DNA of 64,000 nt from a phage, in the sequence record PZ674595.1; one strand, given 5' to 3'. Positions within the stretch are counted from its first letter, which is position 1. Each line of letters begins with the position of its first letter. Under the pieces are notes generated by a model, which searched no databases, was not told where the DNA came from, and was given only the letters and a program-made list of their open reading frames with translations. The translations under genes and the position numbers were made by a program. This document shows positions 2,825 through 51,477 of this stretch, piece after piece.

Positions 2825-3028
2825 GTGCGTAAAGGATGTTTCGGCTCTCTTATCGCTGCTTCTGAAACTGGCAAGGCTTGTCTGGGGTGTCCAGACAAGC
2901 CCGATTGTCACCAATCAGCAAAAGAAGTTGCGATTTCGATGTATGGGAAGTTCGTAGGCTTCCCCAATGACAAAATCAAAAAAACCAGAAAGGTAAAAAC
3001 ACATGAAGGCACTGATGGTTCGAACTGA
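2825..3028 (+). CDS. small Cys-rich hypothetical protein (GTG start, overlaps dnaE-like start)
   Basis: 67-aa ORF with CLGCPDKPDC motif; no clear RBS; overlaps next gene out of frame. Confidence 0.25.
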   Translation: MRKGCFGSLIAASETGKACLGCPDKPDCHQSAKEVAISMYGKFVGFPNDKIKKTRKVKTHEGTDGSN

Positions 3029-6000
3029 CTTCTCACTTGGGGAGTCGGCTCTAAAAGCAGAAAACGCGGTGAAGATTGCCAGAGAAGCTGGCTACACCGC
3101 TGTAATTTCAGCAGATAGCATGAATATTGCAAGTGTTATTCCACTACAACGTGCCGCTGGTGACGACATGGCGGTTATTTGTGGTGTGAAACTAAACATT
3201 GTTGATGATCCCACATACGAGCACCGGGCTAAACTTGCTAAAGAATCTATGAGATGTATGGAATCATTAGAGCGGGGACGTAACTACTCGTTTACCGCTC
3301 TAATTAAAAATGAGCAAGGATATCGCGACATCTGCGAACTAATGACGGCGGCCAACACACGAGAACAGTTCTACTTTGTACCGCGTCTCTCGCTCGAACA
3401 GTTGGTTTCTACATATGCCAAAGGCAACATCATCCTGCTTACTTCCGACATCGGTAGCGTGTTCCAACGCAACGATTTTGCAAAAATCATAAGCACACTG
3501 ATTACAGCGGGTGGAAAAGACAACTTCTATAGTGTGGTTTATCCGCACCCTACCCCATTCTACGACCAGATTAACGTCCGGGCGATGAAAGTCGCCAGCG
3601 CATTGAAAATAGAGCCAGTGGCGTTCTATCCCGCTTATTACGAATCGATCGACGATGCAGACATTAAAGACATTGCGCACATGGTTACGAACAACATCAA
3701 AATCGACCAGCCGCATCGTCTGCGTATCCCCCACCAGCGAGATAACGCCGTCAATGGTCGCCGCCATCTCCTTGAGGCGCTTAAAGCCTTCTCCGTTCGC
3801 ATGGATGTGCCGGTAACAGCTGCAATGGCCTCAACAACGCAGGATACCATTATCGATGCCTGCACATGGCGCTGGCATGAATTGCCGCCAGCACTGCCAA
3901 AGATGGCAGACGACGAGCCTGCAACGCTTATGAAACTGGCTGTTGCAGGGCTGCGTAAACGTCTTACCACAAAAGAGTTTGGCTACACACCACCTGCTTC
4001 TGAGAACAGGGTTTATGTTGAGCGGCTAAAGTACGAAATGGACACGCTGACTCGCCTGGGATTCTGTGGTTACTTCCTGATGGTGCGCGATCTGATGAAT
4101 CATAGTCGTGAAACTGGCATTCCCGTTGGGCCTGGTCGTGGTTCCTCTGCCGGTTCTCTGGTGGCGTGGTGCATAGGCATAACCAACGTCGACCCAATCC
4201 GTCACGGTCTTCTGTTTGAGCGTTTCATCAACCCTGAGCGTCTCGACTTGCCAGATGCGGATTTGGACTTCAGCCAGGCACGTCGCCATGAGGTGATCGA
4301 GTATCTGAATGAACGCTACGGCGAAGATTACGTTGCAGGCATTCCGAACTTCACCTACCTGGGCGCAGCCTCTGCACTACGTGACACCGCTCGTATTTAT
4401 GGTGTGGAGTCCGCAGATATGGCGGTATCAAAAGAACTGAAGAACGCTGAGGATGATAGCCTTCCATTGGAAGAACTGCGCGAACAACTGGCAAGTCTCG
4501 ACAAATACGCAACAAAATATCCTGATGCATTCAATGCAGCCTGCAAGTTACAAAGCCTTATGCGTGGCTTTGGTAGACATGCGGCAGGGATGATCGTAGC
4601 AGGTGTTCCTCTGACAGAACGTACACCGGTTGAGCGCCGTGGTGACGCGCGTTGTATCGCATTTGACAAGCGTTACTGCGAGGCTATGGGCCTAATTAAG
4701 CTGGACGTGCTTGGCCTGGCAACTCTCGATTTGCTCGATAGTGCAAAACGCTACATAAAAGAGAACACAGGTGAAGATATCAATCTTGATGCCATTTCTC
4801 TTGAAGATCGCAAGGTGCTGGATGGTTTTGCTGCTGGGTACACTCAAGGTGTTTTCCAGCTTGAATCAGGCCCAATGCGCAAGCTGCTTAAAGATTTAGG
4901 TGGTGGAATTGAGCCAATGAGCTTTAAAACGGTCGTCGCTACAACTGCGCTCTTCCGGCCGGGGCCAATTCAATCAGGCATGTTGGATGACTATGTTTCT
5001 GTCGCCAAAGGCTTTATGACGCCGGAATCATTACACCCCGTTCTTGATGAACTTACCGCGGAAACAAATGGCGTGATTCTCTATCAGGAACAGACGATGA
5101 ACGCGACTCGATTGCTTGCCGGCTTCACAATGGCTGAAGCTGACGCTGTGCGTTCCGCAATCGGTAAGAAGAACATGGAAAAAATGAAGAGCATGGGCGA
5201 GAAGTTCATCGTTCAGGCTCAAGCTGGCTGGATAGACGTTGAGCTGGAAGATGGCACTACACAGCGCATTCACCGTGCGGAACATTTTAAATGCGAAGAC
5301 GGAACTCTGAAAACTGTCGAAGAGGCACTTGAGCACGGCGCAAAACTACCTATAAACGCAGTACGCGTTACAGCGTCACATCCAGGGCTATCAGAGATGA
5401 AAGCGAAGGAGATCTGGACCGCATTTGAGAAAAACGGAGCCTATCAGTTCAATAAATCACACTCCGTTGCTTATTCTTTAATCAGTTATCAGTCTATGTG
5501 GCTAAAGACGCACTACCCTGCTGAGTTCTTCGCAGCTGCGCTCACCATTCTGGGCGAGGATAAGCATCAGGGGCTGGTGAAGGATGCGCTGACCTATGGC
5601 ATTCGCGTATTGCCACCAGACGTTAATGTGTCATCTAACCGAATTGAGATCCGCACACTCGAAGACGGCAGTCAGGCACTGTATGCGCCATTCTCTGCTG
5701 TGAAAGGCTGTTCTGAAAATGGTTGTCAGGCAATTATGCGTGCGCGTGAGAAAGTTGGTGGCAAATTCGAGTCAGTGGCACAATTCGATGAAGCGGTCGA
5801 GAAGCGTGCATGTAACAGTCGTGTACGCGAGTCGCTTCATAAAGTAGGGGCTTTTGCGTCAATTGAGCCAGGCAGTCTGCCAGCAACTGATCCTGAACGA
5901 CTGCGCGACCAGGCTGAGCTGATGGGCAATCTCATCATTGACGCTGTTAAAGCATCACGTCCGTTCGAAATGAATCCTAAGCGTTCTGCCGAAATCAACG

Positions 6001-6521
6001 TACTCATGACACGTATGGCGGCTGAAATGGGCTTGGGTGAGGAGTTGATACGCCCGACTATTGGTATTAAACCCAAAATCATGATCATTCTGGACAATGC
6101 GAACGGCAATGACGCTCGTACCGGCTACTTCATGGAGAACGGATACGACGACTTTAAGGCAAAACTACTGACAGTTGGAGATCTGCGCATGGGCGATCTT
6201 TATGTCACGGGTGTTTGTAAGAAGGTTAAGGACAAAGAGAAAGACTATACCAAAGACGAGATAGGCCAGTTCACAGACTTTATGCGGGAAGAAATTAATC
6301 TTGTACGACCAACCTACATTTTGACGTGTGGTAGTCGTTCAACCGCACTATTTAACAATAAGAGTAAACCATCAGATCTGATTGGTCGTAAGGAGTACTT
6401 CCCAGAGCTTGATGCAACCGTCTTCTACGGATTTAACCCGAATATCCTGTACTTCCGACCGGAAGAAGGAGAGCGACTGGAGGCCATTCTGGCTGATATC
6501 GCGGAGACAATAAATAAGTAA
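3003..6521 (+). CDS. dnaE: DNA polymerase III alpha subunit homologue (DnaE-like)
   Basis: 1172-aa ORF; DnaE-type motifs GVFQLESGPMRKLL and FNKSHSVAYSLISYQSMWLKTHYPAEFFAAAL; N-terminal PHP-like region; RBS AAAGGTAAAAACAC before ATG. Confidence 0.9.
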   Translation: MKALMVRTDFSLGESALKAENAVKIAREAGYTAVISADSMNIASVIPLQRAAGDDMAVICGVKLNIVDDPTYEHRAKLAKESMRCMESLERGRNYSFTALIKNEQGYRDICELMTAANTREQFYFVPRLSLEQLVSTYAKGNIILLTSDIGSVFQRNDFAKIISTLITAGGKDNFYSVVYPHPTPFYDQINVRAMKVASALKIEPVAFYPAYYESIDDADIKDIAHMVTNNIKIDQPHRLRIPHQRDNAVNGRRHLLEALKAFSVRMDVPVTAAMASTTQDTIIDACTWRWHELPPALPKMADDEPATLMKLAVAGLRKRLTTKEFGYTPPASENRVYVERLKYEMDTLTRLGFCGYFLMVRDLMNHSRETGIPVGPGRGSSAGSLVAWCIGITNVDPIRHGLLFERFINPERLDLPDADLDFSQARRHEVIEYLNERYGEDYVAGIPNFTYLGAASALRDTARIYGVESADMAVSKELKNAEDDSLPLEELREQLASLDKYATKYPDAFNAACKLQSLMRGFGRHAAGMIVAGVPLTERTPVERRGDARCIAFDKRYCEAMGLIKLDVLGLATLDLLDSAKRYIKENTGEDINLDAISLEDRKVLDGFAAGYTQGVFQLESGPMRKLLKDLGGGIEPMSFKTVVATTALFRPGPIQSGMLDDYVSVAKGFMTPESLHPVLDELTAETNGVILYQEQTMNATRLLAGFTMAEADAVRSAIGKKNMEKMKSMGEKFIVQAQAGWIDVELEDGTTQRIHRAEHFKCEDGTLKTVEEALEHGAKLPINAVRVTASHPGLSEMKAKEIWTAFEKNGAYQFNKSHSVAYSLISYQSMWLKTHYPAEFFAAALTILGEDKHQGLVKDALTYGIRVLPPDVNVSSNRIEIRTLEDGSQALYAPFSAVKGCSENGCQAIMRAREKVGGKFESVAQFDEAVEKRACNSRVRESLHKVGAFASIEPGSLPATDPERLRDQAELMGNLIIDAVKASRPFEMNPKRSAEINVLMTRMAAEMGLGEELIRPTIGIKPKIMIILDNANGNDARTGYFMENGYDDFKAKLLTVGDLRMGDLYVTGVCKKVKDKEKDYTKDEIGQFTDFMREEINLVRPTYILTCGSRSTALFNNKSKPSDLIGRKEYFPELDATVFYGFNPNILYFRPEEGERLEAILADIAETINK

Positions 6522-6551: not shown

Positions 6552-6824
6552 AAAGAATTATGGCGCTTGTTGAGGAAGTCACTCCTCTTACGCACTTTGT
6601 TTTGCCATGCCGGCAGTTAGCTTCTGCCTTTGACTATTCATGCGGCAACCCCGCATTTCGCCACAATGGGCAATTCACTTTTATGGAATAAACTGGCCGT
6701 TGTGTCGATTTAATTAGCATGGCCTTACCATGCTAATTTATTCAACTTGTACAATCCTACAAATCTATCCACTCAGGCTTACACCGTCTTCGTTATTGTA
6801 GAAATGAGGATCATCAGCGTTGAA

Positions 6825-7040
6825 TCAGCTTAGAGCAACGACATTTGCTGCTGCTGGGCCTTTAGCCCCATTCTCGATAGAGAATTCGACCTGCTGGCCT
6901 TCTTCCAAAGTGCGGAAATTATTACTCTGAATTGCCGAAAAATGTACAAAAACATCTTTACTGCCATCAGCAGGAGAAATAAAGCCAAAGCCTTTATCAG
7001 AGTTAAACCATTTTACTAAACCAGTCATTTTATTAGACAT
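6825..7040 (-). CDS. Cold-shock protein, CspA family (closest in my recollection to CspB/G/I)
   Basis: Translation [38 protein letters not shown]... with RNP motifs KGFGFI and VFVHF; ATG at 7040 is internal Met33 of the 103-aa track ORF, preceded by GAAGGT. Confidence 0.9.
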
Positions 7041-7369
7041 AGATATTACCTTCTTAATTTTGTGAGCCACATAGTGCGGCGAGAATTTGATCTGTATAGA
7101 TTGGGACTTACTTAGGCACTTAAGGAGGAGACTCACGAAGAAGGGAAATCAGAAGATAACACTGAACTGAGACTGCTTTACTAAAACTGCTTACATAAGG
7201 TCTGTCTTGCAAACCAACGATGCTATTAACGCATACCCCTTCTTTTCATGCAACCTTTATTTTTCAAAGATAACTAATTTTTGTCACCATTGGTTTAGTA
7301 AACGTTAACGAACCAGACGATGCCAGACACCTTTACAGAGAACAGATGCCCGCCAATTGGCGGGCATCA

Positions 7370-11324: not shown

Positions 11325-12398
11325 ATGGCAAAAGGAAAATCCGCACTGGCACTTGCTCTGAAAAAGAAAATCGGTAGCAACGACGAAATTCAGAAAGTAA
11401 CTCATTGGATTGATACAGGCTTTCCACCGTTAAACAAAGCTATTTCTGGTCGTTACGATGGCGGCTTCCCATGTGGTCGTATCGTCGAAGTATTCGGTCC
11501 TCCAAGTGCAGGGAAAACGTTCCTTGCAACAGCAGCGATGATCTCCGCTCAAAAACAAGATGGTCTGGCGGTATTCCTCGATCATGAAAACAGTTTTGAC
11601 GTTGGCCTGGCTGTCGCCAATGGCCTGAACGCAGATGAGGATGACGGTCAGTGGGTATACAAGCAGCCAGATACCTTCGAAGACTCTGTAGAGTTGATCG
11701 GCACAATACTTAAATTGGTTCGTGATGAAGAGCTTATCCCCGAATCAGCACCAATCTGTATCGTGGCTGACTCTCTTGCGTCTATGGTTCCGAACTCCAA
11801 AGCCGAGAAGTTCGAAAAGATGGCTGAAGGCACTGCCAAAGACAAAGATCAGCTAAACATGAACGACAATACGGCACTGGCTCGTGCGACGAGTGCGAAC
11901 TTCCCTACTCTGGCTTTGTGGGCACGCAAATACAACGCCTGCATCATCTTCTTGAATCAGGTTCGCACAAAAATCGGTGTAATGTTTGGCGACCCTACTA
12001 CGTCGCCAGGTGGAGATTCACCGAAGTTCTACGCTTCTGTACGTATCCGTCTTGGTGCATCGGTGATGAAGGATGGTAAAGAGAAGATCGGCCAGGACGT
12101 AGGCGCAGAATGCATCAAAAACAAAGTTGCACCACCGTATGGCAAATGCACCTGGAAATTCTACTTCGATCCTACTCGTGGCCTCGACGTTATCGAATCG
12201 CTCGTCGAGTACATGCTGGAAGAAGGATACCTGCCAAAGAACGCCAGCGGGCGAGTTGAAATTGGTGACAAGAAATACACCAAATCGCAGATCGTCGAGA
12301 TGTATCGGGAGAAGCCACTGGCTGAAATCATTGCGGCTTTGCAGGCAATCGACGACCGAAGAGCAAAAGACAACCCCACCGAGTCAGTAGAAGAGTAA
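11325..12398 (+). CDS. RecA-superfamily recombinase (UvsX/RecA-like)
   Basis: Walker A GPPSAGKTFLA, RecA-like core; RBS AAGGAG. Confidence 0.85.
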   Translation: MAKGKSALALALKKKIGSNDEIQKVTHWIDTGFPPLNKAISGRYDGGFPCGRIVEVFGPPSAGKTFLATAAMISAQKQDGLAVFLDHENSFDVGLAVANGLNADEDDGQWVYKQPDTFEDSVELIGTILKLVRDEELIPESAPICIVADSLASMVPNSKAEKFEKMAEGTAKDKDQLNMNDNTALARATSANFPTLALWARKYNACIIFLNQVRTKIGVMFGDPTTSPGGDSPKFYASVRIRLGASVMKDGKEKIGQDVGAECIKNKVAPPYGKCTWKFYFDPTRGLDVIESLVEYMLEEGYLPKNASGRVEIGDKKYTKSQIVEMYREKPLAEIIAALQAIDDRRAKDNPTESVEE

Positions 12399-28728: not shown

Positions 28729-29142
28729 ATGGCAAGAGGTATGTATGTCTTATGCGAAATTGAAGGTGTGCTGGCAAATGCCAGCCATCGTAAATCAGTA
28801 TCTGACGCGGATGCAGGCCAGCTCATTGCCGGTGATGAACTCATTTTCCCCACCAGCCGTATGTTGCGTGGTTTTGCTCGCTCAGGGGCTGAAGTGGTGC
28901 TTATCAGTAGCCGCTCTGAAACTCTTGAAGCGCCAACTAAACGATGGCTGAAAGATTTTGGCGTTGATTATGACTGGCTTCATCTCGTACCGAATGGCAC
29001 CAGTTATGAGAAGCATATTAAGCGCACATTAGCGGAGCATAAAGGCGATCTGCTTATCGCTGCGCTGGTGCACGATCCTCGACTCCGTGCCGCTTTAGCT
29101 GACTCTCATCATAGACCGGTCATCTATGAGGTGAGCAAATGA
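28729..29142 (+). CDS. hypothetical protein (possibly HAD-like hydrolase)
   Basis: ATG at 28729 overlaps thyA stop; stop overlaps DHFR start (ATGA); weak HAD-like N-terminus. Confidence 0.3.
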   Translation: MARGMYVLCEIEGVLANASHRKSVSDADAGQLIAGDELIFPTSRMLRGFARSGAEVVLISSRSETLEAPTKRWLKDFGVDYDWLHLVPNGTSYEKHIKRTLAEHKGDLLIAALVHDPRLRAALADSHHRPVIYEVSK

Positions 29143-29615
29143 AGATGATAGCTGCTGTTGGCCGTAACTATGAGATCGGCATAGCGAACGAACTGCCCTG
29201 GCGTTGTTCTACCGATCTGAAGCTATTTAAGAGACTCACCAAAAACGCCACTGTCGTTATGGGGCGTAAAACGATGGAAAGTCTCAAACGCCCTCTTCCA
29301 GAGCGTCATAACCTCGTTTTGACGCGCTCTCATGGCTTTGTACCAAATGGATTCTACCCTGCTGGTGTGGATGATGTGTTGCGATTACCAGAGCCTGTGT
29401 GGGTGATTGGCGGGGAACAAATTTACTCGCTATTCATGCCGCATGTTGAAGAGATTTGGCTCTCCCACATCGGCGTTGATGTGCCAAACGCCGATGCATT
29501 CTTCCCGGCAAGCATGATGCGTAATTTAGGCTTTGTGCCTGTTGAAACAGCTTATACCCAACGAGCCAGCGAGGAAGAGCCTGGCTTTTCGCAGATCGTA
29601 TACAGAAGGTCGTAA
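29139..29615 (+). CDS. folA: dihydrofolate reductase
   Basis: MKMIAAVGRNYEIGIANELPW, VVMGRKTMESLKRPLPERHNLVLT, VIGGEQIY match DHFR motifs; RBS GAGGTGAG. Confidence 0.85.
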   Translation: MKMIAAVGRNYEIGIANELPWRCSTDLKLFKRLTKNATVVMGRKTMESLKRPLPERHNLVLTRSHGFVPNGFYPAGVDDVLRLPEPVWVIGGEQIYSLFMPHVEEIWLSHIGVDVPNADAFFPASMMRNLGFVPVETAYTQRASEEEPGFSQIVYRRS

Positions 29616-30749: not shown

Positions 30750-31307
30750 ATGACAACGATTGTTGCAGGCATCGATATCGAGTCTACGGGACTGGATTTC
30801 CTTGCTGGTCATAAAATTATTGAAATCGCAATTACCCGCTATGAACTGGAGACACAGAGACATATTGATAGTCTGGAGATGCGTTTTAACCCTCGCAGAA
30901 ACATAGATCCGAAAGCTCAAGCCGTTCATGGCATTTCATTGGAACAGCTCGCAGCTGAACCTTTGTTGTCAAATCATGCCAGCGAAATTGGCGCTTATAT
31001 GGGGGCATGTAGTGTGTGGGTTGCTCATAACGGCGAAGCATTTGATATACCATTTATTCGACACGAGTTTTCAGGGTATGGAGTAAGACTGCCAGAAGTT
31101 CCTGTTATAGATACTATGTTATCGGGATTGTGGGCCACAGAAGACGGTAAACGTCCCCGCCTTGAAGAGTTGGCCTTCTCTCTTGGCTTTATATACGATC
31201 ATGCCAAAGCACATAGTGCCTTATATGACACAAACTTAATGATGCAATGCTTCTTTAAGGCACGTAATAAGTACGGATTTTTTAAATTACCCTCTGAAAT
31301 TGTGTAA
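30750..31307 (+). CDS. dnaQ: DnaQ-like 3'-5' proofreading exonuclease (DEDDh)
   Basis: Exo I GIDIESTG, HKIIEIA, VHGI, Exo II HNGEAFDIPF, Exo III HSALYD; RBS AAGGAG. Confidence 0.8.
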   Translation: MTTIVAGIDIESTGLDFLAGHKIIEIAITRYELETQRHIDSLEMRFNPRRNIDPKAQAVHGISLEQLAAEPLLSNHASEIGAYMGACSVWVAHNGEAFDIPFIRHEFSGYGVRLPEVPVIDTMLSGLWATEDGKRPRLEELAFSLGFIYDHAKAHSALYDTNLMMQCFFKARNKYGFFKLPSEIV

Positions 31308-33479: not shown

Positions 33480-34000
33480 AAACTATTCATAAAGTGAATT
33501 GTAAGTGCTAAGATCTGATAGTTTCCAGTCGTAGACTGGAGACTCGACCTGATGGGTGGGGGTAAGCGTCACTGGCGTCAGGTTTAAAAAAGCTCACTAC
33601 CAGCGTAGAACCGGTGCCGTTTAGGTGTCGGGGAAGGGGGAACCAAAGTGAGCGGAGACAAGGGTCACTTTATGATTGTCGAGTCTGGGGTGTTTCGAGA
33701 GGTTGAATCCAGTACTCCCCTTCATAAAGTGTGGGAAGATCTCGGTTCTGGGGTGCTGTCATCCATAACTTCCCAAGTCTAAGCTGGCAGTAGACTTAGG
33801 CCATAACTTTTCAGGTTATGAAACGACCAGGTTGGTGAGGGATTTTTATACTCACCTCCCTGGGAGAGTATTACCTGAAAAGACAACCTCTCACTTCGTT
33901 CGAGGTGAACTTCACTCACTTCGTTCGTTCAGTTCAGGTTTATAAAAACCTGTTCTGGGAAGTAATTTGTTTATTTTAATAATTATTAACACGCACGCGT
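33480..34000. other. ORF-free structured region (candidate ncRNA or cis-acting site)
   Basis: About 520 bp without any ORF on either strand in a densely packed genome; several hairpins (CCAGTC-GTAGA-CTGG, GGTGAGGGATTTTTATACTCACC, AGGTTTATAAAAACCT); ends with alternating Pu/Py palindrome CACGCACGCGTGTGCGCACGCGCG. Confidence 0.4.
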
Positions 34001-34054
34001 GTGCGCACGCGCGAGGAAAAAAAAATCGGCGCGGCGCTTGATTCAGGAGTTTAT

Positions 34055-34648
34055 ATGACGACGAAGACACCAGCCCGATCGCAAGAAAAAACTCGCAAAA
34101 AAGCCAAAAACAAAAATTCTCCCCGCACCAATTCCACAACGCCTGTCGTAGAGTTCAATCCCCAGCTTAAAACCGTGAAAATCTTCAGTGATGGCTCTTG
34201 CCTTAAAAATCCGGGTGGCCCGGGCGGTTACGGTATAGTTCTCCAGTATCGTGGTGAGGAACGCGAGTTCTCAGATGGTTTTCATAGCACCACCAATAAC
34301 CGCATGGAGATGATGGGGGCACTTATTGGGCTGGAGCGTTTGAAATATCCATGCAACGTTATTTTGCACTCTGATAGCCAGTATCTGAAAAACGGCATGA
34401 CACAGTGGATGAAATGGTGGAAACGCAATGGATGGGTGACTTCTGACAAAAAACCGGTAAAGAATGTTGATCTGTGGAAGCGTCTGGATGAGGCTGCAAG
34501 TCGACATAATGTTCGCTGGAAGTGGGTTAAAGGTCACGCCGGGCATCGTGAAAATGAAATATGTGATCGACTCGCGAAGATCGCAGCTTTTTCCGCAGCA
34601 GATATGCCTCACAAGAAAGATATTGGTTTTGTTTACAACAAGAAGTAA
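34055..34648 (+). CDS. rnhA: ribonuclease HI with basic N-terminal extension
   Basis: [74 protein letters not shown] as in E. coli RNase HI; ATG at 34055 behind CAGGAG. Confidence 0.85.
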
Positions 34649-35297: not shown

Positions 35298-35495
35298 ATG
35301 AACTGGTTTTCAAATCACTTTGGAAAAACTTGGCTGGCGATTCTGGCTTTCATAGCTCTCATGGCCGCCGGTTGGGTATCGAACATTGTAAAACTCGTTT
35401 GCTCTGGTGATCTCCAGTTTCAGGCTGGTATGACCTTGGCTCGTGTTGTTGGGATTTTTGTTTTTCCAGTCGGTTCGGTACTTGGTTATTTCTGA
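35298..35495 (+). CDS. small membrane protein
   Basis: 65-aa ORF with two hydrophobic segments; ATGA overlap with upstream frame. Confidence 0.35.
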   Translation: MNWFSNHFGKTWLAILAFIALMAAGWVSNIVKLVCSGDLQFQAGMTLARVVGIFVFPVGSVLGYF

Positions 35496-35588
35496 CGGTT
35501 GTTAGTGCATATGCATTGACCGTCTTTTCGTAAGCAATTCATGTAACTAGAAAACAACTTGTTTTAACAAATAACAAAAGGAAAGCAC

Positions 35589-36014
35589 ATGTTAGGTTTA
35601 TTCAAAAAGAAAACTCGTAAAGCTGTTATCGAGGTCAAAAAAATGGAGAACCGAGATGCGGTTGAAGCCACCGTGTGGGGCGCGTACATGATCTCCTATG
35701 CCGATGGCACATGCGACGCAAAGGAAATTTCCATTCTTGAGAAAACAATTGCAGCTCTGCCTGCGTTTTCTCCGTTTGCTGGTGAGATTGCCCAAATGAG
35801 CGCCAATATCCGTGCTCAATACGAAGCCTCACCGCGCCGCGCTAATGCCCAGGCTTTACGTGAGCTGGCTGATGTGGCCGGGACTAATGATGCAGTAGAT
35901 GTACTGTGTCTGTGCCTTGATATTGCCGACCAAGACGGTATTGGCGAACAAGAAGAGCTGGCACTGAAAAAGATCGCACAGGCGCTTCAGTTGTCACTGG
36001 ATGCTTATCTCTAA
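35589..36014 (+). CDS. TerB-like domain protein
   Basis: YADGTCDAKEISILEK and DIADQDGIGEQEELALKKIAQAL repeats typical of TerB; preceded by AAACAACTTGTTT motif. Confidence 0.45.
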   Translation: MLGLFKKKTRKAVIEVKKMENRDAVEATVWGAYMISYADGTCDAKEISILEKTIAALPAFSPFAGEIAQMSANIRAQYEASPRRANAQALRELADVAGTNDAVDVLCLCLDIADQDGIGEQEELALKKIAQALQLSLDAYL

Positions 36015-36172
36015 TGCTTGAGAGATTCCGGCTTGTGACCGTCATTGCTCTTCTGGTGATGGCGGTGTTGGTGGATTTTACGGGAAAGATGATGTCTGTC
36101 ATTTCTGATGGCGTCCTCATTGGTCTGGCGATCTACTTCGCTTATCCGCTAGTCCGTAAAGCAACGTGTTAA
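36014..36172 (+). CDS. small hydrophobic peptide (52 aa), below track cutoff
   Basis: ATG overlaps upstream stop (TAATG); followed by terminator. Confidence 0.3.
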   Translation: MLERFRLVTVIALLVMAVLVDFTGKMMSVISDGVLIGLAIYFAYPLVRKATC

Positions 36173-42554: not shown

Positions 42555-42565
42555 TCACCATGCTA

Positions 42566-42596
42566 AAATCCCCTCAATTCACAGAGGGGATTTTTG
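42566..42596 (+). terminator. Rho-independent terminator
   Basis: AATCCCCTC-AATTCACA-GAGGGGATT followed by TTTTG. Confidence 0.7.
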
Positions 42597-42866
42597 TATA
42601 TGTTGCATAGAGTTTTATGGAAAAGCGTTATTGTCGGCGCGATACTGGCTATATCTGGGTGTGCAATGGTGCAATACAACGACGGTGAAAAGGTAAGCAT
42701 ACAGTCAGATGGTTGGTATGGTCTGGATAGCCTGCAAAAAACCGCAGATAAAGCCTGTCAGCAATATGGGAAGTCTAAAGCAGTATATCAGCATAGCGCG
42801 AACGCTAACCCTAATCTTGCGCCCGGTTCGGGTGTTCAGAATACCATCTGGAAATGTGAGCCTTAA
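42594..42866 (+). CDS. small lipoprotein
   Basis: Signal peptide with lipobox ISGC; start could be ATG 42594 or 42600. Confidence 0.45.
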
Positions 42867-42868
42867 AT

Positions 42869-43120
42869 ATGAGCGACTGGAATATTGCAGCTAAAAGTCA
42901 GGAAGAACGGGATAAGGTTAACGTTGATCTGGCTGCCAGCGGTGTGGCGTACAAAGAGCGATTGAACATACCTGTCATAGCTGAACAGGTAGCCCGCGAG
43001 CAACCAGAGAACCTGCGCACCTATTTCATGGAACGGTTACGGCACTACCGGCAGTTAAGCCTCCAGTTGCCAAAAGGGAGCCATCCGGTGTATCAGAACG
43101 AGGATGCACCAAGAAAATAA
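42869..43120 (+). CDS. hot: DNA polymerase III theta-subunit homologue (HolE-like; P1 Hot-like)
   Basis: [43 protein letters not shown] closely parallels E. coli HolE as recalled. Confidence 0.75.
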
Positions 43121-43145
43121 CGGCAAGATGGGGAAGACATTAAAC

Positions 43146-43496
43146 ATGCTTAACTATCACGACAACACGCGTTCTATGCAGACAATCCGCACCAATACAG
43201 CGGTGGTCGATAGCTTTCCTGTACATACTCAAGGCCGTGAAGATACCGTGGAAGTGCGACGCATGTTGTGTCGCCGGTCACCAGGCCACCAGCACTTCAT
43301 CGTAACGTTTAAAAGCGATGTAGAGCGCGCCGAGAAAATCTCTAACTCCACATCTCTGGTTAGTCCGTTGGCGGAGGTTATTGTGCGCAACAATAAGGCG
43401 CGCTTTGTCCTTGAGGAGCATCATTCTGATTTTAATGAAAAAATTAAGTCAAGCATTTTGCAATATATGAATGGCAAGTTCACGCCACCAATGTGA
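43146..43496 (+). CDS. hypothetical protein between hot-like and humD-like (position of P1 lxr)
   Basis: Track ORF 43104-43496; internal ATG 43146 has the best RBS (GGGGAAG). Confidence 0.35.
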   Translation: MLNYHDNTRSMQTIRTNTAVVDSFPVHTQGREDTVEVRRMLCRRSPGHQHFIVTFKSDVERAEKISNSTSLVSPLAEVIVRNNKARFVLEEHHSDFNEKIKSSILQYMNGKFTPPM

Positions 43497-43557
43497 TTAG
43501 CCCCCAGCGTGGCGCGCCTGCAAACCCCGCTTTCACAAACTATGCCTTTTCAATGTA

Positions 43558-43577
43558 TACTGTATGAATAAACAGTA
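43558..43577 (+). promoter_or_regulatory. LexA (SOS) box upstream of umuD'-like gene
   Basis: TACTGTATGAATAAACAGTA fits CTGT-N8-ACAG consensus, 19 bp before the ATG. Confidence 0.8.
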
Positions 43578-43595
43578 TCATTGAGGTAAAACGCT

Positions 43596-43985
43596 ATGGG
43601 CTTCCCTTCTCCTGCGGCGGATTATGCAGAGAGCCGTATTTCTCTTGATCAGCAACTAATCAGACATCCTTCAGCGACCTACTTCATGCGGGCGGCAGAC
43701 AGCCATCACCGTGAGGGAATATTGCAAGGTGCTTTGCTGGTGGTTGATTCCTCACTTACCCCGGTTGATGGTTCTCTGCTTGTATGCGCTCTGGATGGGG
43801 AATATCGCGTAAAAAGATACCGGAAGTATCCACGTCAGCATCTGGAGGATTTAAGAACCGGTAAGAAGGAAGAATTGCCAAAGGATGACGATGGATGCAC
43901 GGGCAGCAATGCCGTGTTTGGTGTGATCACTCACATTATCAACGACGCAAGAAGTGGCGAGTTTGATGATTGTCCCGTGATGTAG
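43596..43985 (+). CDS. humD: UmuD'-like protein lacking the N-terminal cleavable tail (P1 HumD-like)
   Basis: MGFPSPAADYAESRISLDQQLIRHPSATYFMRA aligns with UmuD residues after the Cys-Gly cleavage site; S24 peptidase-like C-terminus; RBS GAGG. Confidence 0.8.
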   Translation: MGFPSPAADYAESRISLDQQLIRHPSATYFMRAADSHHREGILQGALLVVDSSLTPVDGSLLVCALDGEYRVKRYRKYPRQHLEDLRTGKKEELPKDDDGCTGSNAVFGVITHIINDARSGEFDDCPVM

Positions 43986-43995
43986 GAGAACTGAT

Positions 43996-44020
43996 TAGGC
44001 GGTGCAATGCACCGCCTTTT
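43996..44020. terminator. bidirectional terminator between humD-like (+) and mrp (-)
   Basis: AGGCGGTGC-AA-TGCACCGCCT followed by TTTTTAT; A/T-rich flank on the other side. Confidence 0.7.
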
Positions 44021-44022
44021 TA

Positions 44023-45123
44023 TCACACTGCGCGGAATGCGATTTCGCCAGGTATTACTTCACCTTGCCAATACATTTGGGCAGCAACGCGATCTGCGAG
44101 GTCACGATAAATAGCCGTAAATTCGCTATCTGGACGACTAATAACGGTTGGTGTTCCGTTATCCAGATCTTCACGAAGAGAGATATGAAGTGGCATTTGG
44201 CCTAACAACTGCGTGTTGTATTTCTCGGCCAGTTTCTGTGCGCCACCGGTGCCAAAAATTGGCTCGTGATGACCGCAGTTACTGCAAATATGCACACTCA
44301 TGTTTTCGACGATACCCAGTACCGGCACTTCGACTTTTTCGAACATCACAATGCCTTTCTTCGCATCGATCAGCGCGATGTCTTGCGGCGTAGTTACCAC
44401 AACCGCACCAGTTACAGGAATGTTCTGCGCCAGCGTCAACTGAATATCACCAGTGCCCGGCGGCATATCGAGAACGAGATAGTCCAGATCAGGCCATAGA
44501 GTTTCCTGCAACATCTGCATCAGCGCCTTGCTGGCCATCGGTCCACGCCACACCATTGCATTGTCGTCGGTGACCAGATAACCAATAGAGTTGGTTGCCA
44601 GGCCATGAGACATGATAGGTGCCATGTGAGTACCGTCAGGTGAGGTTGGACGTTGGTTTTCCGCGCCCAGCATGGTTGGAATTGATGGACCATAGATATC
44701 GGCATCCAAAATACCAACTTTCGCACCTTCAGCAGCCAACGCCAGTGCCAGGTTTACCGCCGTGGAGGATTTACCCACGCCGCCCTTGCCTGAGCTGACG
44801 GCGATAATGTTCTTAACGCCATTAATGCCTGGTTGGTTTTTGACGCGCTTAAGCGTGGCAATGTTGTACGACAGCTTCCAGTCAATAGCCTTTGCGCCAG
44901 TGATACGGAGCAGATCACCACTACATTGCTCTTTCAGGTCTTCAAAAGGCTTATTCCACACGAAAGGCATGATTAGTTCGACATGCAGTGTGTCATCCAT
45001 CAACGCAACATGGTGTAACGCTTTAAGCGTAGTCAGGTTGTGTTTCAGGGTTGGGTGCTGAAAATTAGCCAGCGTACCGGCTACCATTGCTCTCAGGGCA
45101 TCCGGCGATTTGGACTCGCTCAT
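44023..45123 (-). CDS. mrp: iron-sulfur cluster carrier ATPase Mrp/ApbC
   Basis: 366 aa; IIAVSSGKGGVGKSSTAVNLALALAAEGAKVGILDADIYGPSIP and C-terminal ICSNCGHHEPIFG...GEIAFRAV essentially as in E. coli Mrp as recalled. Confidence 0.95.
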   Translation of the reverse strand: MSESKSPDALRAMVAGTLANFQHPTLKHNLTTLKALHHVALMDDTLHVELIMPFVWNKPFEDLKEQCSGDLLRITGAKAIDWKLSYNIATLKRVKNQPGINGVKNIIAVSSGKGGVGKSSTAVNLALALAAEGAKVGILDADIYGPSIPTMLGAENQRPTSPDGTHMAPIMSHGLATNSIGYLVTDDNAMVWRGPMASKALMQMLQETLWPDLDYLVLDMPPGTGDIQLTLAQNIPVTGAVVVTTPQDIALIDAKKGIVMFEKVEVPVLGIVENMSVHICSNCGHHEPIFGTGGAQKLAEKYNTQLLGQMPLHISLREDLDNGTPTVISRPDSEFTAIYRDLADRVAAQMYWQGEVIPGEIAFRAV

Positions 45124-45280: not shown

Positions 45281-47314
45281 ATGACCCAAGTCGCGAAGAA
45301 AATTCTGGTGACGTGCGCGCTGCCGTACGCTAACGGCTCAATCCACCTCGGCCATATGCTGGAGCACATCCAGGCTGATGTCTGGGTTCGTTACCAGCGA
45401 ATGCGCGGCCACGAGGTTAATTTCATCTGTGCCGACGATGCCCACGGTACGCCGATCATGCTGAAAGCACAGCAGCTTGGTATCACACCGGAGCAGATGA
45501 TTGGCGAAATGAGTCAGGAACACCAGACTGATTTCGCAGGCTTTAACATCAGCTATGACAACTATCACTCGACGCACAGCGAAGAGAACCGTCAGTTGTC
45601 TGAGCTTATCTATACTCGCCTGAAAGAGAACGGTTTTATTAAAAACCGCACTATCTCTCAGTTGTACGACCCGGAAAAAGGCATGTTCCTGCCGGATCGT
45701 TTTGTAAAAGGCACCTGCCCGAAATGTAAAGCGCCAGATCAATACGGCGATAACTGTGAAGTCTGCGGCGCAACATATAGCCCGACTGAATTGATCGAGC
45801 CGAAATCGGTGGTTTCTGGCGCTACCCCGGTAATGCGTGATTCCGAACACTTCTTCTTTGATCTGCCTTCTTTCAGCGAAATGTTGCAGGCATGGACCCG
45901 CAGCGGCGCGTTGCAGGAGCAGGTGGCGAACAAAATGCAGGAATGGTTTGAATCCGGCCTGCAACAGTGGGATATCTCCCGAGATGCGCCTTACTTCGGT
46001 TTTGAAATTCCGAACGCGCCGGGCAAATATTTCTACGTCTGGCTGGACGCGCCGATTGGCTACATGGGTTCCTTCAAGAATCTGTGCGACAAGCGCGGCG
46101 ATACCACCAGCTTCGATGAATACTGGAAGAAAGACTCCACCGCCGAGCTGTACCACTTCATCGGTAAAGATATTGTTTACTTCCACAGCCTGTTCTGGCC
46201 TGCCATGCTGGAAGGCAGCAACTTCCGCAAGCCGACCAACCTGTTTGTTCACGGCTATGTGACGGTGAACGGCGCGAAGATGTCCAAGTCTCGCGGCACC
46301 TTTGTTAAAGCCAGCACCTGGCTGAATCATTTTGACGCCGACAGCCTGCGTTACTACTACACTGCGAAACTCTCTTCGCGCATTGATGATATCGATCTCA
46401 ACCTGGAGGATTTCGTTCAGCGCGTGAATGCCGATATCGTGAACAAAGTGGTTAACCTGGCCTCCCGTAATGCAGGCTTTATCAACAAGCGTTTTGACGG
46501 CGTGCTGGCAAGCGAACTGGCTGACCCGCAACTGTACAAAACCTTTACTGATGCCGCTGAAGTGATTGGCGAAGCATGGGAAAGCCGCGAATTTGGTAAA
46601 GCTATCCGTGAAATCATGGCATTGGCTGACCTGGCTAACCGCTATGTCGATGAACAGGCTCCGTGGGTGGTGGCGAAGCAGGAAGGACGCGATGCCGATC
46701 TGCAGGCGATTTGCTCTATGGGCATTAACCTGTTCCGCGTGCTGATGACGTACCTGAAGCCGGTACTGCCGAAACTGACTGAACGTGCAGAAGCATTCCT
46801 GAATACAGAACTGACCTGGGATGGTATCCAGCAACCGCTGCTGGGCCATAAAGTAAATCCGTTCAAGGCACTGTATAACCGCATCGATATGAAGCAGGTT
46901 GAAGCACTGGTGGAAGCATCCAAAGAAGAAGTGAAAGCCACAGCCGCACCGGTAACTGGCCCACTGGCTGACGACCCGATTCAGGAAACTATCACCTTTG
47001 ACGACTTCGCCAAAGTTGACCTGCGCGTGGCGCTGATTGAAAACGCAGAGTTTGTAGAAGGTTCTGACAAACTGCTTCACCTGACGCTGGATCTCGGTGG
47101 TGAAAAGCGTAATGTCTTCTCAGGCATCCGTTCCGCTTATCCAGATCCACAGGCACTGATTGGTCGTCACACCATTATGGTGGCTAACCTGGCACCACGT
47201 AAAATGCGCTTCGGTATCTCTGAAGGCATGGTGATGGCTGCTGGCCCCGGCGGGAAAGATATCTTCCTGTTAAGCCCGGATGCTGGTGCTAAACCTGGCC
47301 ACCAGGTTAAGTAA
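45281..47314 (+). CDS. metG: methionyl-tRNA synthetase
   Basis: 677-aa product from ATG 45281 ([29 protein letters not shown]...KMSKS...); near-identical to E. coli MetG as recalled; track ORF begins upstream at 45152. Confidence 0.97.
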
Positions 47315-51165: not shown

Positions 51166-51477
51166 ATGAAAAAATCATTGGTTCTTGGTCTGGACAAAGA
51201 CCAGAAGAGAAAAGAGAAGCCTGCGCTGGTTGCTCAATTAACTTTGCTGGACATCGTTGCCAATGGAACCTCTATTCGTCTGTTCCGTGAAACAGCGGTG
51301 TCTTTCGATAAAAACACCTTTACTCGTTATGTAATGAATGTTCGTCGCCAGCGTGGAAAAGGCTGGGTGGCATTTCAAAGAATGTGGCCGGAACATCAGC
51401 TCGAACTGGCTTTGATGGAAGTTAACCGCGTGGCCCAGCAAGAGATTCAGAGAGCATCAGTGATGGCAATAGCCTGA
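51166..51477 (+). CDS. hypothetical small basic protein
   Basis: ATG 51166 behind ACGGAG, 10 nt after motif GAAAACAAGTTGTTTA; upstream 50 bp nearly identical to the region before gene 50682. Confidence 0.4.
   Translation: MKKSLVLGLDKDQKRKEKPALVAQLTLLDIVANGTSIRLFRETAVSFDKNTFTRYVMNVRRQRGKGWVAFQRMWPEHQLELALMEVNRVAQQEIQRASVMAIA

Follow-up and report, generated by a model that had tools for sequence, protein, structure and literature searches.

P1-type hot and humD genes with a LexA box in an SSU5-like phage-plasmid of Escherichia coli

Introduction

In E. coli, holE and umuDC are unlinked chromosomal genes. Phage P1 carries homologues of both theta and UmuD' in one short stretch, and its HumD protein is reported to be functionally equivalent to UmuD' (McLenigan et al. 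1999). The P1 record (NC_005856 86567-87973) gives the gene order hot, lxr, humD, as the original prediction on the DNA studied here had stated. No umuC accompanies these genes. The 190-aa Lxr is encoded on the minus strand, in divergent orientation to humD, with which lxr shares the operator. P1 HOT stabilises the epsilon subunit of DNA polymerase III (Pol III) as theta does, can replace theta and has been crystallised with epsilon186; it is the only subunit of Pol III for which P1 has a gene (PMC2528190). humD is a LexA-regulated SOS gene of P1-like phage-plasmids, and the hot-lxr-humD stretch is a hypervariable region of these elements (PMC9603915). The three genes are dispensable for lytic growth of P1 (PMC10695390).

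Here we analyse a related region in a 64-kb stretch of phage DNA (hereafter the window). Its hot and humD genes are already annotated, under the RefSeq names 'DNA polymerase III subunit theta' and 'HumD family translesion DNA polymerase', and are known from P1; here they occur in an SSU5-like phage-plasmid with an unrelated gene between them. No mention of humD or UmuD together with SSU5 was found in the literature that we searched. The features discussed below are collected in Table 1.

Table 1. Positions in the window of the hot-humD region, its allele segments and the plasmid's own replication and repair genes
Feature	Position	Strand	Remarks
hot, theta homologue	42869-43120	+	83 aa; Pfam, PHROG and NCBIfam profiles
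ORF116, small protein	43146-43496	+	116 aa; PHROG 2594
Promoter-like site (TTCACA, 18 nt, TATACT)	43532-43561	+	consensus scan, 10/12 matches
LexA (SOS) box TACTGTATGAATAAACAGTA	43558-43577	.	
Shine-Dalgarno GAGG	43583-43586	+	9 nt before the humD ATG, read from the sequence
humD, UmuD'-like	43596-43985	+	129 aa, without a cleavable N-terminal arm
Terminator-like hairpin and T-run	43997-44017	+	between humD and the convergent apbC
Shared cassette extent	42867-43984	.	BLASTN and sliding identity; breakpoints near 43000-43050 and 43780-43830
Left segment, closest allele P1	42869-43000		95-100% identity; D6-like contigs 75-78%
Middle segment, closest allele D6-like contigs	43050-43800		95-100% identity; P1 without homology over ORF116 (43121-43540), 78-95% from 43529
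Right segment, closest allele Cyrano	43780-44030		98-100% identity; P1 and D6-like contigs about 80%
dnaE-type polymerase	3003-6521		all Pol III alpha domains
RecA	11325-12398		
RNase_T/DEDDh exonuclease, DnaQ-like	30750-31307		185 aa

Results

The genes lie in an SSU5-like phage-plasmid

The window is 99.989% identical to the E. coli plasmid pH261-1, from which it differs at 7 positions, and a 1.6-kb region of it is 100% identical to E. coli plasmids of 110-113 kb. The gene set of pH261-1 is of siphovirus type, with a tape measure gene and a TipJ-family tail tip protein, and further comprises repA, its own dnaE, a DnaB-like helicase gene, recA, a ligase gene, nrdAB, thyA and dfrA51; the isolate also carries ISEcp1-blaCTX-M-64. 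The relatives of this plasmid are SSU5 and Cyrano (pLF82), the latter described as SSU5-like (PMC9928086). Relatives of ORF116 and the humD-apbC-metG context are found in SSU5 and Cyrano, and P1-like phages match only 44-48% of the 1.6-kb query (hot and humD).

The siphovirus gene set, the SSU5 and Cyrano context and the partial match to P1-like phages together identify the host element as an SSU5-like siphovirus phage-plasmid of E. coli. An assignment to the P1-like phage-plasmids (Punavirus) was considered and rejected: myovirus structural genes and the replication and immunity genes of P1, which make up a P1-type backbone, are not what this element has. The arrangement had been described as P1-like in the original prediction. 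That description does not hold for the element, and within the cassette it fits the two ends only, as the ORF between them has no relation to lxr. We read the region as an accessory cassette of P1 type, placed in the variable region of the SSU5-like phage-plasmid.

Hot and HumD closely resemble their P1 counterparts

The theta homologue that the original prediction had read from the DNA, and whose quoted peptide is present in hot, is borne out by profile scores above the curated cut-offs: 116.5 bits for Pfam PF06440 (DNA_pol3_theta; E 4.5e-34, cut-off 34.6, profile positions 2-67 of 70) and 104.7 bits for NCBIfam theta (NF008207; cut-off 97). PHROG 1105 matched at 6e-42. The protein is 92% identical to P1 Hot, and all 83 of its 83 residues align with the P1 HOT structures 1SE7 and 2IDO (E 1.3e-46); residues 3-71 are identical, and the seven differences from the crystallised protein are all confined to residue 2 and the C-terminal tail. 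The proposed alignment with E. coli HolE gave about 55% identity, and the PDB search independently confirms the theta relationship. From the literature on P1, we infer that Hot would bind and stabilise host epsilon.

HumD matches the NCBIfam HumD equivalog profile NF051876 over its entire length (residues 1-129 on profile positions 1-129; 7.1e-66, 220 bits, cut-off 120) as well as Pfam Peptidase_S24, and is 91% identical to P1 HumD and 98% identical to Cyrano HumD. Alignment with UmuD gave about 45% identity, in independent agreement with the PDB search, in which the best matches were the UmuD' structures 1UMU and 1I4V, from their residue 1 onwards (5.9e-23). The protein starts M-GFPSPAADY, so that its residue 2 corresponds to UmuD Gly25 (G25-FPSPAADY), the first residue of UmuD'; the gene does begin at the post-cleavage N-terminus, as had been proposed. 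Since the N-terminal arm of 24 residues is missing, the RecA-dependent self-cleavage step is not needed. HumD also differs from UmuD by an internal insertion and a C-terminal extension of 10 residues. The equivalents of Ser60 and Lys97 are kept.

The same MGFPSPA-type start occurs in six members of the HumD family. Among them, gp26 of N15 and gp23 of phiKO2 (the latter starting from GTG), both from linear phage-plasmids, are 70-72% identical to the HumD of the window and likewise have no umuC beside them, but they differ from it in having no adjacent hot and, both of them, a threonine in place of the Ser60 equivalent.

The chromosomal E. coli genes compare with the window's as follows: HumD resembles UmuD', also behind a LexA operator, and Hot resembles theta, but here hot is plasmid-borne and next to humD, and humD has no adjacent umuC. 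Its neighbours are ORF116 and apbC, and no umuC-type polymerase gene adjoins. For the element as a whole we relied on pH261-1, a complete plasmid and a 99.99%-identical proxy. Its annotation contains no Y-family polymerase or UmuC, and tblastn of its complete sequence with a UmuC query found none (best E 0.55). The claim that the element does without UmuC therefore stands, and HumD would have to use the UmuC of the host. A partnership between the two is also what we infer from the P1 literature.

The likeliest target is host Pol III, although it is not the sole conceivable one, as the plasmid encodes a DnaE, a DnaQ-like exonuclease and a RecA of its own (Table 1). Hot and HumD could instead act mainly on this plasmid exonuclease and DnaE, Hot by stabilising the former and HumD by modulating the latter, as a private fidelity switch. 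E. coli epsilon186 is indeed the PDB entry that the exonuclease matches best (8e-11), and the products of umuD reportedly bind three Pol III subunits, alpha, beta and epsilon (PMC3384344). That match is weak, however (45 bits), and the 185-aa exonuclease lacks the C-terminal part through which epsilon attaches to alpha (PMC2528190). The folded core of Hot is that of P1 HOT, and P1, which has neither DnaE nor DnaQ, uses host epsilon (PMC2528190). Hot and ORF116 are, moreover, absent from the related SSU5-like Cyrano, neither hot nor humD is annotated in the 10-kb stretch of SSU5 that we examined, and the cassette is also found in contigs of D6-like phage-plasmids. We consider a private switch improbable on these grounds. 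A fuller version, in which the captured Hot, HumD and a putatively GNAT-like ORF116 form a mobile cassette that acts on the plasmid replicase and provides SOS-switched control of replication fidelity or damage tolerance, independent of the host chromosome, seems to us similarly improbable. If it were true, HumD would act as a gate on the DnaE of the plasmid and Hot as a stabiliser of its exonuclease, with ORF116 as a new third component.

A conserved LexA box precedes humD and no other gene of the cassette

TACTGTATGAATAAACAGTA is the only exact TACTG-N10-CAGTA in the 64-kb window, where 0.06 would be expected by chance. The original prediction had called it a perfect consensus; this is right for both half-sites, which match, and not for the central spacer, which agrees with (TA)5 at 7 of 10 positions. 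The distance of 19 bp to humD was also given there. Counted from the A of the ATG, the last base of the box does lie 19 positions upstream, so that the nucleotides in between number 18, against 19 intervening nucleotides in P1. The box of P1 (TACTGTATAAATGAACAGTA) occupies the equivalent place, 18-19 nt before humD, and in D6 both the box and the 18-nt spacing are identical to those of the window.

The humD-like genes of P1, D6, D6-like contigs, Cyrano (TACTGTATGTGTATACAGTA), N15 (gp26) and phiKO2 (gp23) all have a site of the form TACTGTAT...ACAGT(A/T/G) 14-44 nt before the start codon. All these lineages retain the CTGT-N8-ACAG half-sites around a spacer that varies; for Cyrano, N15 and phiKO2, the flanks of the box are unrelated. 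Conservation of the half-sites among lineages with unrelated flanks is comparative evidence that the operator is real. The P1 record annotates a LexA site 19 nt before humD; the phiKO2 record also annotates one, in a box which, differently from the window, is shared with a divergent dinI-like gene.

By consensus match, a sigma-70-like promoter is predicted whose -10 hexamer, TATACT, overlaps the first four bases of the box. D6 and the D6-like contigs show the same overlap, P1 and Cyrano a similar one. The P1 record places a predicted PhumD elsewhere, inside lxr. The GAGG ahead of humD is kept in P1, D6 and the D6-like contigs.

Box scans of the window found no second LexA box upstream of hot or ORF116. 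Two further sites were examined and set aside as chance-level matches: the only other CTGT-N8-ACAG, at 51280-51295, which is GC-rich and lies inside an ORF, and a LexA-type site with one mismatch at 34229. Since hot and ORF116 both come before the box and have no other box ahead of them, LexA control can apply to humD only. The idea that the element acts under LexA control is thus plausible for humD and fails for hot and ORF116. Repression of humD by LexA would follow what is described for P1. The start codon of hot is 2 nt past the stop of an upstream lipoprotein-like ORF, which hot abuts, unlike P1 hot, which is preceded by an Lpa-dependent late promoter. hot is probably co-transcribed with this ORF and with ORF116. 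No terminator was found between ORF116 and humD, so LexA-independent expression of humD by read-through is possible.

Downstream of humD, the terminator-like hairpin has a 9-bp stem with 7 GC pairs followed by TTTTT, is identical in Cyrano, and is not part of the segment, starting near 44027, that has homology to the E. coli chromosome. In the cassette region, Rfam found no RNA elements and a repeat search gave only pairs at chance level.

The middle gene derives from the SSU5 backbone

An ORF of 116 aa had been noted between hot and humD. PGAP calls it as 130 aa starting at 43104, but Met 43146 (MLNYHDNTRSMQ..., MLNYHDNTRSMQTIR...) is where the PHROG 2594 profile and the 13-15 homologues all start, in support of the 116-aa version.

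A 140-aa gene present in SSU5 (SSU5_031) and in many SSU5-like plasmids shares 64-66% identity with ORF116, which is shorter by about 24 C-terminal residues. The family of ORF116 is a small one of 20 clusters, all of them from Enterobacterales. On this sequence evidence we regard ORF116 as a short variant of the 140-aa backbone gene of SSU5.

The gene is not P1 lxr: BLASTP against Lxr gave no alignment at E <= 100, and ORF116 lies on the strand of humD rather than divergent from it, with 116 aa rather than 190 aa. As it fills the same slot between hot and humD, it could still be a functional counterpart of lxr, LexA-regulated through an operator shared with humD. The lack of sequence similarity to Lxr already speaks against this. 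In addition, ORF116 runs on the strand of humD and stops 61 nt before the box, which consequently cannot overlap the ORF116 promoter, and neither ORF116 nor hot has a box of its own. In SSU5 and most SSU5-like plasmids, the homologues lie far away from any humD, flanked by the lysis cassette and parA. Such a role is most improbable. ORF116 would rather be a passenger from the SSU5 backbone that takes the place of lxr in position and not in function.

The cassette is a mosaic of three alleles

Contigs with D6 as their best phage match carry the same cassette, hot-ORF117-box-humD, followed by phd-doc as in P1. Two of them, L013 and L015, share 95-100% identity with the window over ORF116, the intergenic region and the 5' part of humD; the 5' part of hot differs, being another allele (Table 1), as does the phd-doc that follows humD. 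P1 itself shares with the window the order and orientation of hot and humD, but belongs to a different phage-plasmid family, and its humD is followed by phd-doc, in contrast to the apbC-metG of the window. Cyrano and the E. coli SSU5-like plasmids share the backbone family and the humD-terminator-apbC-metG arrangement, and the 3' part of humD and the terminator of Cyrano are 98-100% identical to the window in DNA; what sets Cyrano apart is that the sequence upstream of its box is unrelated, with hot and ORF116 both missing.

The copy of the cassette in the window is a mosaic of three alleles, P1-like, D6-like and Cyrano-like from left to right, which indicates recent recombination. The cassette was probably gained by recombination with a co-resident P1-like or D6-like phage-plasmid. 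In the simplest history, an SSU5-like ancestor would have had a resident humD of Cyrano type, the right-hand crossover would have fallen inside humD, and the left junction would have formed 2 nt before the hot start codon.

Losses are also seen. D6 lacks the 3' part of hot and the whole middle ORF, its truncated hot abutting the humD promoter, an arrangement suggestive of a deletion, in a cassette of this kind, that joined two TACAAA sites. Some D6-like contigs have lost humD. Some part of the region is present in 752 of the 5426 complete E. coli genomes, ORF116 in only 25. The variability of the cassette in Cyrano, D6 and the D6-like contigs suggests that its contribution to fitness is probably small or conditional.

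It might even be recently recombined, selectively neutral cargo that makes no measurable contribution and owes its intact state solely to its late arrival. The rarity of ORF116, the mosaic with its sign of recent recombination and the frequent losses and truncations in relatives would all fit this view, as would the fact that the genes are non-essential in P1 (PMC10695390) and that the region is listed as highly variable in P1-like phage-plasmids (PMC9603915). Yet hot and humD are under strong purifying selection. For humD, dN/dS is 0.04-0.08 at dS 0.4-0.9, where synonymous divergence is saturating, and for hot it is 0.04 against the D6-like allele; selection on ORF116 is weaker (dN/dS 0.26-0.41). 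The operator half-sites are kept where their flanks are unrelated, and humD-type genes persist in five phage-plasmid families. Neutrality of the cassette is therefore unlikely in our view.

Discussion

We consider it likely that humD is repressed by LexA and supplies ready-made UmuD' to host UmuC during the SOS response, and that hot, which is not under LexA control, supports host epsilon. This reading draws on the predicted promoter and box and on what is described for P1. A strong operator for host LexA would cover the -10 of the humD promoter, so that humD would be silent until DNA damage triggers LexA cleavage. HumD would then be made already 'processed', and its dimers could join host UmuC in a translesion polymerase like Pol V. 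This route would skip the wait for RecA-mediated cleavage of UmuD. Hot, whose folded core equals that of P1 HOT, would bind and stabilise host epsilon outside LexA control.

The added value of this locus is mild, in that it offers a clear case of cassette exchange between phage-plasmid families. P1-type hot and humD, together with the LexA operator, also occur outside P1-like elements, and they move by homologous recombination among unrelated families of phage-plasmids (P1, D6 and SSU5-like), which share E. coli as a host and carry resistance genes such as CTX-M as well. Every phage-plasmid lineage that we examined (P1, D6, SSU5-like, N15 and phiKO2) had a UmuD' of the pre-processed, stand-alone type downstream of a LexA box. 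This shared design suggests a general benefit to plasmid-prophages during the SOS response, and the locus provides a tractable system in which to ask whether such elements raise the mutability of their hosts under antibiotic stress.

Organization of the hot-humD cassette and its surroundings

The 48-aa 'theta' of phage D6 is a shortened hot joined to the humD promoter, the junction reading GCTTACAAA followed directly by CCCCGCTTTCAC. This arrangement fits a deletion between TACAAA microhomologies in a hot-ORF117-humD cassette like the one we find on a D6-like phage-plasmid contig (L013).

Most SSU5-like plasmids carry, between the lysis genes and parA, a 140-aa homologue of ORF116 (the middle ORF of the cassette in the window) together with a neighbor of 231-247 aa. 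In pH261-1 a TacA-antitoxin/GNAT-toxin pair takes the place of these two genes, and the short ORF between hot and humD is therefore the sole ORF116-family copy of the pH261-1-type element. Just upstream of hot, a terminator-like hairpin precedes an ORF whose product has a lipoprotein signal with a lipobox. The stop codon of this ORF is separated from the hot ATG by 2 nt, suggesting that the two genes are translationally coupled.

In the HumD-like proteins N15 gp26 and phiKO2 gp23, a Thr occupies the position of the UmuD nucleophile Ser60, whereas the equivalent of Lys97 is invariant. The Thr is consistent with self-cleavage having no relevance in this pre-trimmed family.

Features in and around the cassette and in related elements
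Feature	Location	Strand
D6 48-aa 'theta'	phage D6 (L020) 1489-1647	
N15 gp26, HumD-like	N15 (L018) 529-912	
phiKO2 gp23, HumD-like	phiKO2 (L019) 600-980	
140-aa ORF116 homologue and neighbor	SSU5-like plasmid loci (L008-L011) 5001-6151	
TacA-antitoxin/GNAT-toxin pair	pH261-1 (L005) 35336-36134, outside the window	
DnaE, Pol III alpha-type	window 3003-6521	+
cspA thermoregulator (Rfam), 185.7 bits, full length	window 6800-7218	-
RecA	window 11325-12398	+
Dihydrofolate reductase, PGAP name DfrA51	window 29139-29615	+
DEDDh exonuclease, 185 aa	window 30750-31307	+
rnhA (RNase HI)	window 33985-34648	+
Terminator-like hairpin	window 42565-42594	
Lipoprotein-like ORF, 88-90 aa, lipobox AILAISG-C, PHROG 7757	window 42600-42866	+
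apbC (mrp), full-length	window 44023-45123	-
metG (methionyl-tRNA synthetase), full-length	window 45281-47314	+

Other genes carried by the phage-plasmid

Downstream of humD, apbC and metG are divergent, as they are on the chromosome. Their DNA is ~90% identical to the E. coli chromosomal copy, so the pair was not captured recently from that species. Among complete E. coli genomes, apbC-metG is present at 224 plasmid locations. The metG of the phage-plasmid is a second MetRS. Elsewhere in the window, the cspA thermoregulator precedes a cspG-like cold-shock gene, and the DfrA51 gene sits within a nucleotide-metabolism block with thyA and nrdAB; trimethoprim resistance has been reported from DfrA51 of SSU5-type phage-plasmids (PMC12217456).

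The top PDB match of the 185-aa exonuclease is E. coli epsilon186 (8e-11), and the protein lacks the C-terminal alpha-binding segment of epsilon, the host Pol III proofreading subunit. The rnhA gene is frameshifted according to the annotation of the near-identical pH261-1. Taken together, DnaE, the exonuclease, RecA, hot and humD make up a replication and fidelity set that is unusually complete for a plasmid.
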